Positions 36,843 to 44,806 of a stretch of 64,000 bases of DNA are shown piece after piece. Below the pieces are notes generated by a model, which did not search any database, was not told where the DNA came from, and worked only from the letters and a program-made list of their open reading frames with translations. The number at the start of each line of letters is the position of its first letter. Position 1 is the first letter of the stretch. The stretch lies in NCBI RefSeq assembly GCF_013315695.1, contig NZ_CP054354.1; one strand, given 5' to 3'. The position numbers and the translations under genes were made by a program. The DNA comes from Escherichia coli. Lineage in GTDB: Bacteria > Pseudomonadota > Gammaproteobacteria > Enterobacterales > Enterobacteriaceae.

Positions 36843-37310
36843 TTATTTCTTATTCTGTTTTCTCCAGGTCCATGGTGGTACCGGATTTTTATCTGCCCAT
36901 AATCCCCGCTTCAGGGCGCGGGCATCACGCTGGAGCGGCGGGAGAGTATAGTCATTATTGTAGTCCGGGTACACCCAGGCAGCGCCGTTACGGACCTGCC
37001 AGCGATTTGCTTCTGTGCCGTCAGCGGTATAGACCCGGCCGAGAATACGGCCATACCTGTCTGTCTGCGCGTATTGCACGGTTACGGGCTTTCCGGCCAC
37101 CAGGTCCTTCAGCTGAGTGGCTGACCAGCGTCCAAAGGGCTGTTTCTTTTCCGGTGCATCAATATTAGCCAGACGGACCCTGACAGGCTTTTTGTCCTGT
37201 AATATTTCCAGCGTATCACCATCAAGAACGCGGATGACGTGCCCCTGAATCTGTGCAGCACAGAGAGAAGCGGAAAAAATAATGGTGAGTGAAAAGATAT
37301 ATTTTATCAT
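36843..37310 (-). CDS. nuc: Secreted thermonuclease (micrococcal nuclease-like)
   Basis: 155 aa; signal peptide then VIRVLDGDTLEI...VRVRLANIDAPE, matching SNase active-site pattern; GGAG RBS. Confidence 0.85.
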   Translation of the reverse strand: MIKYIFSLTIIFSASLCAAQIQGHVIRVLDGDTLEILQDKKPVRVRLANIDAPEKKQPFGRWSATQLKDLVAGKPVTVQYAQTDRYGRILGRVYTADGTEANRWQVRNGAAWVYPDYNNDYTLPPLQRDARALKRGLWADKNPVPPWTWRKQNKK

Positions 37311-37412
37311 TTCATCGTCTCCTTTTTATTTATGAAAACAGGTGCAATTAATATTGCGAAATAATAACGTTCAGGTGTGTTTTTTTTGGCAGTGTGATAC
37401 TTCACGCAGGGC

Positions 37413-38093
37413 ATGAATTCCAGTACGCTGATATCCGTGATGATACGGCAACAGATATCCGGTGACGGTATGCAGGAACATATTGATTATCAGATTGAGA
37501 AATATCAGTTCAGGGCCAGGAATGAGTCACCGCGACTGATGCGCCAGTGGGAAGATGTCATGCGTGAATGCCGTGATACCGGAGCAGGAGCCAGGGAGCG
37601 GCTGCGGATTGCCTTACTTAATGTTGATTATGTGACCAGTTTTGAACTGCCGTTTCGTCTGCTGTTAACCCGGACACCGCAGATGATTGACAGCGTGCGG
37701 CGGGAATGGCAGCTCAGCCAGAAAAAAGTTGTATTCAATGAGCGGCAGCGGGGATGTGTATACAGTCTGCAGAATGACTTATCCGGCGTGCCGGATAGCT
37801 TCAGTTACAGTCTTGCGACGCGAATACGGCGGGCGGACAGCTATGGCATGACGACGCGTTGTTTCACTGATATAGCCGGGCAGGTTAAAGCCCCGACAGC
37901 ACGGCTGAAACTGGCGCTGGAAAGCGGGTTAATTGTCACCGCGCTGGATGGTCTGTTCTGGCTTGGTATTCAACGTATTGCCGCAGATGTGCAGCGGCTG
38001 CGTCAGTCCGGAATGACAATCATCACCCGGGATGTTGAGGTCTCAGACTCGCTGACCGGAACCACACGGGTTGTTTCCGGGTACAGCCTTTGA
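37413..38093 (+). CDS. Hypothetical protein (226 aa)
   Basis: Long ORF, no clear RBS at any candidate start; 3' end overlaps the convergent 38043-38294 ORF by 51 nt. Confidence 0.45.
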   Translation: MNSSTLISVMIRQQISGDGMQEHIDYQIEKYQFRARNESPRLMRQWEDVMRECRDTGAGARERLRIALLNVDYVTSFELPFRLLLTRTPQMIDSVRREWQLSQKKVVFNERQRGCVYSLQNDLSGVPDSFSYSLATRIRRADSYGMTTRCFTDIAGQVKAPTARLKLALESGLIVTALDGLFWLGIQRIAADVQRLRQSGMTIITRDVEVSDSLTGTTRVVSGYSL

Positions 38094-39420: not shown

Positions 39421-39749
39421 GATGTGTCCTTGTTTTTTATTATTTTGCATTTCAGAAAATAACACGATGCCTGCAGCCCGGAAAACAGATGTGTGCACAC
39501 GTAGTCACTTTCCGGCTTTATTTCTGTCCCTGACACAAAATACGTGGTGGCATGAAAAGGATTGTGGCGGACTGGAAAACGATTAGAATAGCGGCGGGCG
39601 CTTGAGGCTGTATGCCGAAAGCGTTTTGTGGACGGCATGTAGCAGAAAGCCCCAGGCGATTTTTTTATCAATCAACCCAGGGCCCACTGTAATGCCTCAA
39701 CAACATTATAGTAGCCCGATGACGGCCGAAAGGCAATGGAGGGGCTGCG

Positions 39750-39902
39750 ATGCCACAACGAACGTTTTTAATGATGTTAATCGTCGTCTGTGTGACGATA
39801 CTGTGTTTTGTCTGGATGGTGAGGGATTCGCTTTGCGGATTTCGTATCGAGCAGGGAAATACGGTGCTTGTGGCAACGTTAGCCTACGAAGTTAAACGTT
39901 AA
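39750..39902 (+). CDS. Hok/Gef-family type I toxin (PndA-like, 50 aa) with overlapping mok-like frame
   Basis: MPQRTFLMMLIVVCVTILCFVWMVRDSLCGFRIEQGNTVLVATLAYEVKR fits the Hok pattern (...R.SLC....G...V.A.LAYE.K); overlapping ORF 39692-39895 ends 7 nt before the hok stop, as mok does; below the ORF-track cutoff. Confidence 0.7.
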   Translation: MPQRTFLMMLIVVCVTILCFVWMVRDSLCGFRIEQGNTVLVATLAYEVKR

Positions 39903-40039
39903 CGGGCAACACGGCGGTAGAGAATCTGCCGCCGGATTGTTGCGAAGGCTGACCTCAATGCGCCTTGTTTGTCTTTTTTACCGGACGACTGCTGGTTGCT
40001 GCTGTCCGGCAGCTATTATTTTTTCCGTCCTGTGCGTCA

Positions 40040-41626
40040 TCAATTATGACAGTCGCTCTCATTTAGTTGTCTCTGGTTAGATGTATTATTAGATATTTTC
40101 GGGGTAATTCGATAAAAGTTATCCACTTCAGCACCAGACTGAATGATATATGCAATAAGATCTAAACGATGAATCTCGTATCGTGTACGTAACTCCATCA
40201 TTTCACGCCATGCTAAAATCCTTGATGTTTTCAGTTCAGCCTCTATAAGTTTCCATGTGTTTGTTGAGATGGCATGTTCTTCCAGCTGACGTAACGAGAA
40301 CCTATCACTAATGACCAACCATCCCCATCCTCGAGTATGTGCCCATTTGCGACCTGCATTACTTTTTATTCTCGTGAGACTCAAGGTCATTCGGTCTGTT
40401 GGCTTCACTTCCATAAGTAGGCACCGACCATCAACTGTCGCAATGAGTAAATCTGGATAGTATTTTTTTGATTTGTTTTTAAAACAATATGGAATAGAAA
40501 ATGGTTGTTCTTGATAGAAAAGAACCTGATCGCAACATTCTAATAGATTCATTATTTTAAACTCAAGCCCTGATTCGTACTGGACTGTACGACCTAATTT
40601 TTGAGAGTAAAAGAATCCAGATATGTCAGTATCATTAACCGCTCTCTGTGAACATAGCTGTTCTACGGGGGGAGGAGGTGCGATATATTTTGGCCAATGT
40701 GTATTGTCTAGCCATTTACTGAATATGAACTCAACTCTTTCTTTCTTGATTCGGGCTCTTTCCTGAGCGCGAGCGTGTGCTAATTCTGCTCTTCGTTCAC
40801 GTAACCTCTGCTTTTGTAATTGTGATATTAATGAGAGCGAACTTTTTATTTCATCTCGTCTTGCTTTAGGAATGCCTGCGGTAAAAATAATGAATTTGGC
40901 GGCTAAGTCAGAGGATGTAACGAAATCCCGATGAACAATACGATAAATCCATACTGCTATATCATATGGTGAATTACCTATTGAGTTAATAAGGGCTTTA
41001 AGGCAAGCTCCAGGTGTCCCTTCATAGCGAGATTTAGCAGCTAGTAAGCCAAGGGCTCGTTCCTGAAGTTGTCTTACCCTTTCACGGGAAATTCCTAATT
41101 TGACGGCAATATCTGCCAGAGAATGAGGTGAATCATCTGTGCCGAGTCGCATTAGAAGAATATATTGATGTCGTTTATTAGATAAACTTTCGATAGCAGA
41201 ATGAATTAGCATAATGACATCATGTTCATCGGCTATATAATCTTTAAAATCTGTATTGGGTTGGCAGAGGGGGAGTGGGGTATTTTGTTTAAAACTATTC
41301 TTTTGTATTTCAACTTTATCATGAGCAATTGTTTTTGCAGTGCTCAATGATATTAAATTATTGATGATACTATTGTGTTCTTGGCGAGGAATCTTGTTGA
41401 AGTAATTGCTGAGATCATTCACCGTGTTTATATCGTTGAACTCAAGAAACTCAGAAGGAAGCAGGCGTTTGATTGCTCCACGTATTCCCCCGGACGATCG
41501 TTGATGTGTTTGAGTAAGTTTTTTTAGCGAGACGCCCTCCGCTATGGATACGAGAAGACGCTGTAACTCTTCAGTATTCCATGGAGTACCATGTCGTGCT
41601 GGAAAATTGCTGCGGGATTCAGACAT
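40040..41626 (-). CDS. AT-rich multi-domain protein: Myb/SANT-like N-terminus, sigma-70 region-4-type HTH, C-terminal TnsA-like PD-(D/E)xK endonuclease (528 aa)
   Basis: GTPWNTEELQRLL (SANT-like W..EEL), SLADIAVKLGISRERVRQLQERALGLL (sigma r4/LuxR-type HTH), QYESGLEF...YYPDLLIATVDGRCLLMEVKP (E...PD...EVK nuclease core). Domain calls by eye. Confidence 0.65.
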   Translation of the reverse strand: MSESRSNFPARHGTPWNTEELQRLLVSIAEGVSLKKLTQTHQRSSGGIRGAIKRLLPSEFLEFNDINTVNDLSNYFNKIPRQEHNSIINNLISLSTAKTIAHDKVEIQKNSFKQNTPLPLCQPNTDFKDYIADEHDVIMLIHSAIESLSNKRHQYILLMRLGTDDSPHSLADIAVKLGISRERVRQLQERALGLLAAKSRYEGTPGACLKALINSIGNSPYDIAVWIYRIVHRDFVTSSDLAAKFIIFTAGIPKARRDEIKSSLSLISQLQKQRLRERRAELAHARAQERARIKKERVEFIFSKWLDNTHWPKYIAPPPPVEQLCSQRAVNDTDISGFFYSQKLGRTVQYESGLEFKIMNLLECCDQVLFYQEQPFSIPYCFKNKSKKYYPDLLIATVDGRCLLMEVKPTDRMTLSLTRIKSNAGRKWAHTRGWGWLVISDRFSLRQLEEHAISTNTWKLIEAELKTSRILAWREMMELRTRYEIHRLDLIAYIIQSGAEVDNFYRITPKISNNTSNQRQLNESDCHN

Positions 41627-41832
41627 GATTTTATCTTTATGTTTTCTAGGTACTGCCTTGAGTGTGTGGATATGATAATTATTTGTAATGATATTGTTAT
41701 CTTTTATAGATAACTGATATGCAGAATTGTATTGATTTTGTCTACAGTGGGCAAGACAGTGCTAAGAATTTGTGGGGAAAACATAGAGACTCCATGCGGC
41801 GTCCTGAGATAGACGGCAGACAGGCATTCTGC

Positions 41833-41867
41833 CTGAAAAGAAAAAGCCGGTTCAGAGAAAACCGGCT
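41833..41867 (-). terminator. Rho-independent terminator after the excA-like gene
   Basis: Minus strand: agccggttttctctgaaccggct followed by ttttt. Confidence 0.5.
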
Positions 41868-41899
41868 GACGGATTATCGTCTAACAGTTGATAGCTACC

Positions 41900-42553
41900 T
41901 CAAAATACTTCTGCAACAGGAACACCGGCAACTTTTTCCCACTCTTTAACCCGATACCGGATCATCTGTGGGAAACGTTCCTTGTACTCATATCCACGTG
42001 CAGCCATGGTGTGCATGGTGTTGGCCAGCGTCCTTGCTGAGATGCCGGAGATCTCAAGAGGAATCATCGGCAGACTCACATAGGTGGTGTGGATTTCCAG
42101 CTTGCCGTCTTCAGCAACCGTGCGGGTAAAGTTGTGAATATCCAGACCAATCACATCCATCACATTGTTTGGATAAATACGCACATACAGCATGGTGCCG
42201 TTTTTAATGTCGATCCCGAAATAACAACTCTTCGAGAATGACAGTTGCTCATAATCGCTGGTCGGCGCAAAGGGACTGCTTTCTTTTATCTGCTGAACAA
42301 CCTGCTGGACTTTCTTTTTCTTCGCTCTGGTTTTCATATATAGCCAGAGTGATGGGAGTATTAATAGGAGCCAACTGCCATAAGTATATAGATATGCTTG
42401 AATATCTGTTTCTATATATGGTTCTGTAAGCATCATACCGGTAAATCCTAGAGAACATAGTAATAAAAAAGGAACACCAAATATAAAATAAGCAGTGCGG
42501 ATAAGGTAATAATATGCCCACCAGGAAGGATATCTGCTTTTTGTTGTGTTCAT
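41900..42553 (-). CDS. Putative entry-exclusion inner-membrane protein (ExcA-like by position)
   Basis: 217 aa, two N-terminal transmembrane segments, GGAGG RBS; lies directly downstream of traY where I-type plasmids carry exc; AT-rich; sequence itself not recognised. Confidence 0.45.
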   Translation of the reverse strand: MNTTKSRYPSWWAYYYLIRTAYFIFGVPFLLLCSLGFTGMMLTEPYIETDIQAYLYTYGSWLLLILPSLWLYMKTRAKKKKVQQVVQQIKESSPFAPTSDYEQLSFSKSCYFGIDIKNGTMLYVRIYPNNVMDVIGLDIHNFTRTVAEDGKLEIHTTYVSLPMIPLEISGISARTLANTMHTMAARGYEYKERFPQMIRYRVKEWEKVAGVPVAEVF

Positions 42554-42640
42554 AATAAACCTCCATATTCACCTGAATGTATTTTAATCTCTTCAGGTGA
42601 ATATGGCAATGGTGTTTTAGTGGTTTTTCGATATTTTCAT

Positions 42641-44806
42641 TTATTGTTTTATTCCGTCTTTATCATCTCTATTAATATTTTTCAGTTTTTCTTCACGAAC
42701 GCCAGGTGTTCTGCGCATATTGGTATTACCTCCGGCAATAATATCTTTGACTGAAGAAACCATATTCCCCAGCATATTAACACCGTCACGTCCGCCCAGA
42801 AAATTAATTACATGGTCAGGCAGATAAGCCTGAAGCGCAAAAACGGCTGCAACCAGTGTGGTACAGGCGCGGGCATAAATCATCAAAAATCCCGCCATGC
42901 TGAACACACCCGTCACAGAGTTTATCTGGACATTCATCAGTGCAGCAGCATACAGCGCATTCAGGATTGTGCCGCCGGCCACGATGGCGACTGATGCAAA
43001 AAAGAACCCGAACACCATCAGCAGCGGTCTGATCATGCTGTCTATCAGGTAGATGTAACCGTAAGCGGCTCGGCTTCCCCGGTCCTGACTTGTTCCCAGA
43101 TGGGTGGCGGCCCACAGGGGGCCAGCAGCACATCCAATCAGTACGCTGACTATCCAGTTGCCGATGCCGGTCATCCAGAAGATAAACGGGATAAACGGCA
43201 GGTAAATGGATAACGAAAAACCGGCACAAAACAGCAAAAACAGCAGGAAGTAGAGTGGTGGTGCGGATGCTTCCAGAAAAGCCTTTGCGGCGTCAGATAA
43301 TCCGCTGACGGCATTGACCAGTCGACCAAAAACGGAGTTGCTGCCGGCCGTGGAAAGTACCCTGACGGTGGTATAACCCGCCCAGATGGTTTCGGTCGTA
43401 ACCATGGTGTAATCGCCAATGTTTTTCATTTTTATCAACGGATTTAGTTGATTAGTTGTGGTACCTGTACCGCTCAGATAAGTGGCTGTCCAGTTAGTCA
43501 TTCTTGTTAGGTTAAACCCAATCAATTTTAAGATTGCTGATTGAGGGTCTTGAGTTTTAGATGCGTGGTATTCACTGGCAGAGGTGGCGGTTCCCAGTGC
43601 AGGAGTATACGCTGAGTTCTGCAGCTGTGCCTGGTAAGCCCCCTTGACTTCCTTCAGGAATTCCGTATCCCCGGCTTCGCCCAGTGACGAGACGCCACTC
43701 ACTGTAGGAGCACGGTCGGCCAGTTCAGCCAGTCGCTGGTTGGCGGTGGCAAAGGTCTGGTACCAGGCGCCCAGGGCAACCCAGCCGTAGGTGGTCAGGT
43801 AGGATTTCAGCTGCTCCCTGCGCTCAGTTTCTGCGTTATCTGCCGGCAACGCCTTCTGCACCGTTTCTTCATACCGGTTGGCTGCCTTCTGAATACGGCT
43901 TTCAATATCCGGCAGGTTGCCGTTACCCGTGTCGCGCCGGGTCCGGTATGCCGACACAAATTCCTGCGCCGCGCTGTCCAGGTCACGGAGCATGGTATCC
44001 ATGGCGGAGCGCTGTGCCGTCAGAACCCCCTGATATTCCGTTTCAATGAAGGGATTGAAAAAATGGGCCAGCGCGGACTGCTTGTTACTGCCGTTTCCTT
44101 TCACGGAGAGACTCACACTCCCGCAGGTGGCGCTGCCATTTGAGACGGTGACGGTATATCTGCCATTCTCTGTCCGTGAGGATTCGCTCATGGGCGGCGT
44201 TGATGAACGTGCGGTACGGTTAAAGTCATCGAGGCCCGTATTCATGGCGTGTTTGCACAGTTCCATCTCCAGAATTCCCCGTGCTGCCGTGCGGGTGGAG
44301 ACATGTACTGGCTGTACGGTCATTGAATAGCCTTCAGCAATGTTTTCTGCCGCTGTCTGAACCATGATATTGGCGGAACCGATGCCCATGATGGATGCGC
44401 CCCACAGCATGACCAGTTGCGCCAGACTCCAGCCGGAAGCGGTGGGCACAATCATCAAAAATCCACTCACGACACTGAGTATGCCGACGACGTCCCGTCC
44501 GTTGTTAAAGACACTGCCCTGGTGTCCCGTGCGGACAGCATGACGGATACCAATAAACAGAAACCAGACTATCCCCATCGTGGCGATAATTGCGTTAAAC
44601 ACCATGAACAGGTTGCCAATGATGGTGTTGCTGCTGGCTGTCAGGGGATTTGTGACCACATCACCAAAAATGGTGACCAGTGCCTGGCGCGACAGGTCAT
44701 CCGGATTGGTGGCGGCACTCACAATGTCCTGATAGGTGACGAAAGCCTGTGCAGGTACGGCAGCCAGCGCCAGACCTGCACTCAGTGCTCTGGGTATGAT
44801 TTTCAC
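42641..44806 (-). CDS. traY: TraY, polytopic inner-membrane T4SS protein (DotA-like)
   Basis: 721 aa, signal peptide plus many transmembrane segments; GTG start 5 nt after GGAG. Confidence 0.8.
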   Translation of the reverse strand: MKIIPRALSAGLALAAVPAQAFVTYQDIVSAATNPDDLSRQALVTIFGDVVTNPLTASSNTIIGNLFMVFNAIIATMGIVWFLFIGIRHAVRTGHQGSVFNNGRDVVGILSVVSGFLMIVPTASGWSLAQLVMLWGASIMGIGSANIMVQTAAENIAEGYSMTVQPVHVSTRTAARGILEMELCKHAMNTGLDDFNRTARSSTPPMSESSRTENGRYTVTVSNGSATCGSVSLSVKGNGSNKQSALAHFFNPFIETEYQGVLTAQRSAMDTMLRDLDSAAQEFVSAYRTRRDTGNGNLPDIESRIQKAANRYEETVQKALPADNAETERREQLKSYLTTYGWVALGAWYQTFATANQRLAELADRAPTVSGVSSLGEAGDTEFLKEVKGAYQAQLQNSAYTPALGTATSASEYHASKTQDPQSAILKLIGFNLTRMTNWTATYLSGTGTTTNQLNPLIKMKNIGDYTMVTTETIWAGYTTVRVLSTAGSNSVFGRLVNAVSGLSDAAKAFLEASAPPLYFLLFLLFCAGFSLSIYLPFIPFIFWMTGIGNWIVSVLIGCAAGPLWAATHLGTSQDRGSRAAYGYIYLIDSMIRPLLMVFGFFFASVAIVAGGTILNALYAAALMNVQINSVTGVFSMAGFLMIYARACTTLVAAVFALQAYLPDHVINFLGGRDGVNMLGNMVSSVKDIIAGGNTNMRRTPGVREEKLKNINRDDKDGIKQ

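Follow-up and report, generated by a model that had tools for sequence, protein, structure and literature searches.

Single-protein defence nucleases of the Shedu type, and others similar to them, carry swappable N-terminal sensor domains. In these enzymes, as in type IV and winged-helix-fused restriction enzymes, variable N-terminal modules are joined to a C-terminal PD-(D/E)xK effector, and such nucleases reside in defence islands and on mobile elements. A PD-(D/E)xK domain with an E...D...K triad also characterizes TnsA (structures 1f1z and 1t0f; PseTnsA, 30jv), and a sigma region 4 module occurs in a defence setting in MzaA, part of the five-gene MZA anti-phage system. Here we analyzed a gene (40040..41626, minus strand, taken from the list of open reading frames, ORFs) that lies in a 64,000-nucleotide stretch of Escherichia coli contig NZ_CP054354.1, referred to below as the window. 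Its 528-amino-acid product combines a sigma-70 region 4 helix-turn-helix (HTH) with a TnsA-type nuclease domain. We read it, at a probability of roughly one half, as a stand-alone HTH-guided DNA endonuclease that is carried as cargo by mobile elements and is probably directed against invaders. The gene is already annotated and present in the literature, yet mislabelled, and its product is a candidate single-protein sensor-nuclease.

Compared with TnsA, the window protein shares the triad-bearing domain and has about 330 extra N-terminal residues (a Myb-like HTH, sigma region 4 and a helical linker); its gene is solitary, without TnsB/TnsC partners or transposon ends, and its score against the TnsA_like_Actin model of NCBIfam (NF033179) is 46.8 bits, for a cut-off of 110. 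With region 4 of the primary sigma factors (RpoD/SigA) it has in common the HTH fold and a 'T/S-R-E-R-I/V-R-Q' recognition helix, whereas regions 1-3 are absent, as are core binding in the manner of a sigma factor and recognition of the -10 element. The match to MzaA is weak and confined to region 4 (NF041931, 27.1 bits vs 800); MzaA has no TnsA-like nuclease, and genes of the MzaB-E type were not found beside the window gene. The likeness to Shedu-type nucleases lies in the one-polypeptide layout, and the protein differs from them in having no PADLOC sequence or profile match, in the TnsA type of its nuclease and in modules derived from RNA polymerase. Every NCBIfam match of the protein lies far under its cut-off, including that to the BPTD_3080 family restriction endonuclease (NF046055, 19.1 bits vs 800, residues 356-430 only), and the END nucleases were rejected on their different architecture (PLD and an inactive EndoIII). 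In PADLOC-DB v2.0.0 the only match was SspB (E 5.6e-4, 17.4 bits, residues 171-251). The main text of the DefensePredictor paper mentions neither TnsA, nor sigma, nor the accession of the protein, and searches of the open-access literature by the names given in the Prokaryotic Genome Annotation Pipeline (PGAP), by the Pfam pair and by sigma-r4/alpha-CTD nuclease defence returned no paper describing the family or its function. A preliminary description of the locus, made from its letters, had found no described system to which the gene could be assigned, and these database comparisons agree with it.

An AlphaFold2 model built on 31 homologues (mean pLDDT, the predicted local distance difference test score, 88.8) divides the protein into several domains, all encoded on the minus strand. 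The helical N-terminal domain (residues 10-103, 41318..41599) begins with a tri-helical Myb/SANT-like HTH at residues 10-57, bearing the motif RHGxPWxxEE...HQR, and continues with two further helices. It is followed by a disordered linker (residues 104-133, 41228..41317), where pLDDT drops below 50 at residues 103-122 and the alignment varies in length, and then by the sigma-70 region 4 HTH (residues 134-198, 41033..41227). A helical middle domain (residues 205-307, 40706..41014, defined by secondary structure with pLDDT 94-97) contains a single 54-residue helix, 254-307, and leads to the TnsA-type alpha/beta PD-(D/E)xK nuclease domain (residues 328-442, 40301..40645) and a C-terminal winged-helix-like domain (residues 445-510, 40097..40294). 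The preliminary description had proposed three segments, SANT-like, sigma-r4 and TnsA-like; the latter two calls are strong, the SANT-like one has modest support at the level of the fold, and the winged helix and the long helical linker are additional to them.

Sigma region 4 was matched by Pfam at residues 150-193 (Sigma70_r4, 2.2e-8), and a profile of the family recovered region 4 of primary sigma factors from the PDB at about 1e-15. In that alignment 'SRERVRQ' of the recognition helix (S180 to Q186, 41069-41089, minus) stands against 'TRERIRQ', the residues that read the -35 element in sigma-70/sigma-A. For the nuclease, Pfam reported Tn7_TnsA-like_N at residues 366-440 (1.8e-11). The motif E351/E355...P391-D392...E406-V-K408 (E351, 40574-40576; E355, 40562-40564; P391-D392, 40451-40456; E406-V-K408, 40403-40411; all minus) aligns in register with the solved TnsA of a CRISPR-associated transposon (CAST), so that the E...PD...EVK core suggested earlier proved intact.

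Conservation was counted in two alignments (A1 and A2), each headed by the query and comprising 61 rows in total, i.e. 60 homologues and the query, down to about 22% identity. D392 is conserved in all 61 rows, E355 and E406 in 60 each, K408 in 59 and E351 in 57, with Asp in three more; the catalytic triad is thus near-invariant, and its loss in homologues, named in the preliminary description as counter-evidence, was not seen. The sigma region 4 residues E182, R185 and Q186 are likewise present in 61 of 61 rows, and R183 in 60. The protein is very probably a catalytically competent nuclease equipped with DNA-binding modules.

A word-index search returned 65 clusters with the same architecture, at identities of 55-60% in Enterobacterales, about 40% in Xanthomonas and about 30% in Streptomyces, and with Myxococcota also represented; in an exhaustive search, 2060 representatives reached E<=1e-3, of which 441 also passed E<=1e-10. 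Phage genomes contain virtually no family members. The conserved core, residues ~135-500, joins region 4 to the nuclease, and both Pfam domains were found in 29 of 30 members of a diverse sample. In the same sample the N-terminal slot is interchangeable, being occupied by a Myb-like domain, the C-terminal domain of the RNA polymerase alpha subunit (alpha-CTD), a kinase or nothing. The Myb/SANT-like form is that of the window protein and of the Xanthomonas and Streptomyces homologues. An alpha-CTD lies just N-terminal of sigma region 4 in P0123 (residues 107-154), P0147 (72-127) and P0194 (76-139), with a best Pfam value of 3.2e-10 and matches to NCBIfam rpoA models at 2e-10 to 8e-8; P0155 has a Ser/Thr kinase and a PEGA domain (residues 15-290), and minimal forms of 370-390 amino acids lack any N-terminal domain. 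The recurring theme, as judged from these domain matches, is that the two RNA polymerase modules which read the upstream part of promoters, sigma region 4 and alpha-CTD, are found fused to a nuclease of TnsA type.

Conjugative plasmids typed as IncI1/B/O, such as NZ_CP103535, match the region at 100% identity, and on them PGAP names the product 'TnsA endonuclease N-terminal domain-containing protein' (WP_000004560.1-type); the host replicon is a plasmid of IncB/O/K type. The window contains exact matches to all four oligonucleotides published for pCT (primers and recombineering arms), and the position beside pndACB is also that found in pCT. The exact matches identify the window gene as the orthologue of pCT_066 of the IncK plasmid pCT; it is the same gene, without structural difference. 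Among the unusual features of pCT, pCT_066 was singled out as the most notable, being a putative sigma 70 factor (Cottell et al. 2011, PMC3377399), and was later replaced in part by aph (Cottell et al. 2014, PMC4083329); the segment deleted in that knockout maps to residues 43-411 of the window protein. The mutant, pCT delta-066, showed no change in the stability of the plasmid, in its conjugation to E. coli or Salmonella, in growth of the host, in biofilm formation or in competitive index (PMC4083329). The gene therefore serves neither a plasmid housekeeping function nor a constitutively toxic one. We found the identical protein on at least 1000 contigs, under conflicting database names ('RNA polymerase subunit sigma', 'sigma-32', 'CsgD family regulator', 'TnsA endonuclease...'), and the gene in 255 of 5426 complete E. 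coli genomes (~5%), plasmid-borne in every case.

The genomic surroundings of homologues were compared at about 14 informative loci, comprising three defence islands, at least seven plasmids or integrative elements and several solitary genes. A scan of contigs with a sigma-r4 peptide pattern had mostly drawn housekeeping rpoD genes, and only 6-7 of its 80 loci held true family members. No conserved neighbour gene was found in any context examined, the family member always being a single gene. In Pectobacterium the homologue lies between Gabija (GajA 9e-269, GajB 2e-230) and McrBC in an integrase-bounded island; in Xanthomonas it adjoins an LmuB-like SMC gene (Lamassu-like), SIR2_2 and GmrSD; and in Salmonella it is found 3 kb from the BREX genes BrxA/B/C and a PglX-like methylase. 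Mobile contexts include the plasmid of the window itself, a Providencia plasmid, an smpB-adjacent integrase island in Mangrovibacter, a 22.5-kb element with three integrases inside a prophage of M. abscessus, two mycobacterial plasmids carrying the minimal form, and transposase-flanked metagenomic contigs; contigs with the alpha-CTD form were short and uninformative for context. One homologue adjoins a HipA-like toxin gene.

Two further observations concern these loci. In the Pectobacterium island (L002, 12150-17274) three consecutive genes, for proteins of 734, 643 and 327 amino acids, separate the homologue from McrBC; none has a Pfam family, the sole PADLOC match is a weak ZorA-like one in the 327-residue protein (8e-6), and the three genes could form another uncharacterised defence system. 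Downstream of the housekeeping rpoD gene on a gammaproteobacterial chromosome (L021, 3454-5301) come a HipA_C toxin gene and then, at a distance of about 4.7 kb from rpoD, the homologue; this proximity is probably coincidental.

The reading that we prefer is that of a sequence- or structure-guided endonuclease carried as single-gene cargo. The Myb/SANT-like and sigma region 4 HTH modules would bring the protein to double-stranded DNA, the E-R-x-R-Q residues of region 4 being those that read the -35 element in primary sigma factors; the long helical linker, possibly a dimerisation element, would join these modules to the catalytic domain, and the TnsA-type domain together with the winged helix would cleave DNA. 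Its most likely role would be to shield the carrying element and its host from incoming DNA, from phages or rival plasmids, and it would stay silent on resident DNA. We infer nuclease activity, DNA target, dimerisation and the defence role alike; the last of these is suggested by the partial association with defence islands, the single-gene distribution on mobile elements, the swappable N-terminal module and the silent knockout.

Several observations weigh against such a role. Only three of the ~14 contexts are defence islands, and the homologues of Serratia, Komagataeibacter (next to an IS1182 transposase), Streptomyces and Archangium stand alone among ordinary housekeeping genes. The defence or anti-competitor function put forward in the preliminary description thus finds partial backing, by association; most contexts other than the three islands are mobile elements. 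No PADLOC-DB model covers the protein. Repeated loss or disruption of the gene in several plasmid lineages indicates that it is dispensable. A motif resembling the -35 element would occur at thousands of host sites, leaving the discrimination of self from non-self and the sparing of host promoters unexplained. Finally, promoter-like hexamers upstream of the gene occur at the level expected by chance (6 observed vs 5.8 in shuffled sequence).

The four solitary homologues also speak for a selfish, free-standing endonuclease gene that, like a homing endonuclease, promotes its own spread or retention, as does the separate low-GC cassette of 1.84 kb, equipped with regulatory signals of its own, in which the window gene is found. 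HTH modules resembling sigma region 4 and fused to nucleases are, moreover, typical of free-standing homing endonucleases (NUMOD-type). We nevertheless consider this explanation unlikely: each context is a different locus, with no intron, intein, conserved target site or flanking repeats, the family is nearly missing from phages, where such genes thrive, and three members sit inside multi-system defence islands.

Less probable still is a transcription regulator, whether sigma-like, anti-sigma-like or promoter-occluding, in which the HTH would be functional and the nuclease fold a mere scaffold for DNA binding or oligomerisation. The label of sigma factor, in use since 2011, the conserved helix that reads the -35 element, and relatives that add an alpha-CTD or match sigma beyond region 4 would all fit a regulator. 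Pfam detected Sigma70_r4 alone in the window protein, and neither Sigma70_r2 nor r3; its matches to sigma models of NCBIfam cover region 4 only and reach 14-31 bits, far under cut-offs of 43-800. Since region 2 is absent, the protein cannot act as a sigma factor, and the label attached to pCT_066 and in databases is unsupported by the domain analysis. Catalytic residues that are near-invariant across phyla would be hard to account for without catalysis, and a regulator sits poorly with a knockout that left every tested phenotype of plasmid and host as it was.

Of similarly low probability is a nuclease at the service of the mobile element, engaged in DNA repair, recombination or the resolution of DNA structures and acting, for instance, on junctions or multimers during replication or transfer, a role to which the neighbouring transfer genes and a weak Pfam match to the junction resolvase phage endonuclease I (E 0.005 for the window protein; E<=0.1 in 6 of 30 family members), would lend themselves. 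That the protein belongs to a Tn7-like heteromeric transposase, as a subunit or as a remnant (the latter already turned down in the preliminary description), is very improbable: TnsA proteins are indeed the best nuclease matches, but no TnsB/TnsC-like gene was found within +/-12 kb on the identical annotated plasmid and none of TnsB/TnsC/TniQ type at ~15 other loci (~16 in all), terminal repeats are lacking, the NCBIfam score is under its cut-off, no autonomous PD-(D/E)xK transposase is known (10.1101/2023.05.02.539157, a paper on Rpn that refers to TnsA only in a general remark), and members from different phyla keep the fused architecture, a pattern that excludes the decay of a Tn7-like element.

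The endonuclease reading that we favor could be extended further, to single-protein immune nucleases as a new class, assembled from sigma region 4, shared by every member, and alpha-CTD, present in some, although we regard this as a long shot. Either the modules would dock the nuclease on RNA polymerase, or on the strong UP/-35 promoter architecture of invading DNA, or they would serve as bait for phage hijackers (AsiA-, Gp5.7- and WhiB-like binders, alpha-CTD modifiers) whose binding would switch on DNA cleavage; in such a class the plasmid would 'guard' the transcription machinery of its host. The idea of an integrated decoy of the host's own sigma region 4 gave a negative result, in that region 4 of the homologues is not closest to the primary sigma factor of the host: the E. 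coli protein reaches 14 bits against RpoD of E. coli vs 24.6 against its best match, and the Streptomyces protein 30.8 against HrdB vs 40 against S. aureus SigA. A recently captured decoy is thereby weakened, though region 4 may yet mimic conserved surfaces. WhiB proteins bind region 4 of sigma-A. On each of the two mycobacterial plasmids, genes for WhiB-family regulators (L025, 3978-4418; L026, 6115-6819) are found only a few genes away from the minimal-form homologue, which may be coincidence, WhiB genes being common on such elements.

The gene rides on globally disseminated IncK/IncB/O plasmids that carry extended-spectrum beta-lactamases (ESBLs), such as pCT, and has borne a wrong or empty label for 15 years. 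Were it an anti-phage or anti-plasmid nuclease, it would go some way towards accounting for the ecological success of these plasmids; it would also matter for phage therapy of the bacteria that carry them, and the defence repertoire would gain a system consisting of one gene. It is unusual that promoter-recognition modules of RNA polymerase, sigma region 4 and alpha-CTD, recur across phyla in fusion with a nuclease of TnsA type, and this suggests that recognition of promoters or of the transcription machinery may be coupled to DNA cleavage.

The interval between trbA and excA proved to be a variable region for accessory cargo in the IncI complex (window 39500-42600 compared with L010, L011, L012 and L013). 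Alternative cargo at this place includes finQ (an F-plasmid fertility inhibitor), hha, DinQ-like type I toxins (dqlB) and a 69-codon 'HEAT repeat' ORF. Homology to an IncK2/Z backbone without the gene (L011) stops at 39970 and restarts at 41812, which defines a low-GC single-gene cassette of 1.84 kb, at approximately 39971..41811; no meaningful terminal inverted or direct repeats bound it. Plasmid p69-3818 was considered as an 'empty site' and rejected, as it carries instead an internal deletion of residues 17-472 (window 40213-41577). Several plasmids retain remnants, either the last ~56 codons or the first ~319, and in a lineage of S. sonnei plasmids the insertion sequence IS1 lies at the 5' end of the gene, shortening the annotated coding sequence to 460 amino acids.

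Amino-acid differences among plasmid alleles cluster at residues 240-286 (40769-40909), with 8 variable positions in 47 residues vs 5 in the other 481; this could reflect relaxed constraint on the linker or diversifying selection, the counts being too small to choose between them. The alleles of the window and of p3521 differ at eight nucleotides (seven non-synonymous, one synonymous), too few for a reading of the ratio of non-synonymous to synonymous rates (dN/dS).

In base composition, the gene (G+C content, GC, 0.394; at third codon positions, GC3, 0.304) departs from the window (0.536), from traY of the transfer backbone (42641-44806, minus; 0.528) and from excA (41900-42553, minus; 0.430). 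The low-GC location between a hok-like module and an exc-like gene, noted earlier, is thus confirmed by these values and by the flanking genes. Upstream of the gene, 273 nucleotides (41627..41899, minus) separate the excA stop from its ATG and include a terminator-like hairpin after excA (41867-41845, minus), so that the gene is without translational coupling. Two weak sigma-70-like promoter matches lie in this region (41754-41726 and 41700-41672, minus), and a strong Shine-Dalgarno sequence was not found upstream of the gene. The earlier suggestion of an uncoupled gene with its own AT-rich promoter region is borne out as to coupling; the promoter-like hexamers occur at the frequency of shuffled sequence. 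A second low-GC trough (0.358) at 42250-42749, reaching from the 5' end of excA across its junction with traY, shows that the AT-rich block extends beyond the cassette.

On the other side, the Hok/Gef ORF pndA (50 amino acids, 39750-39902, plus) and the sok RNA (39596-39752, Rfam match of 124.7 bits) make up a complete pnd/hok-sok type I toxin-antitoxin module at 39596-39902. The module converges with the nuclease gene, and the two have in common a G+C-rich hairpin (39993..40015, plus) that was scored as an intrinsic terminator of the pnd transcript. Farther away, an accessory stretch at 36843-38093 holds nuc, of the secreted thermonuclease family (36843-37310, minus), and a gene for a 226-residue protein with an HTH domain (37413-38093, plus), and four small hypothetical genes lie between the latter and pnd.

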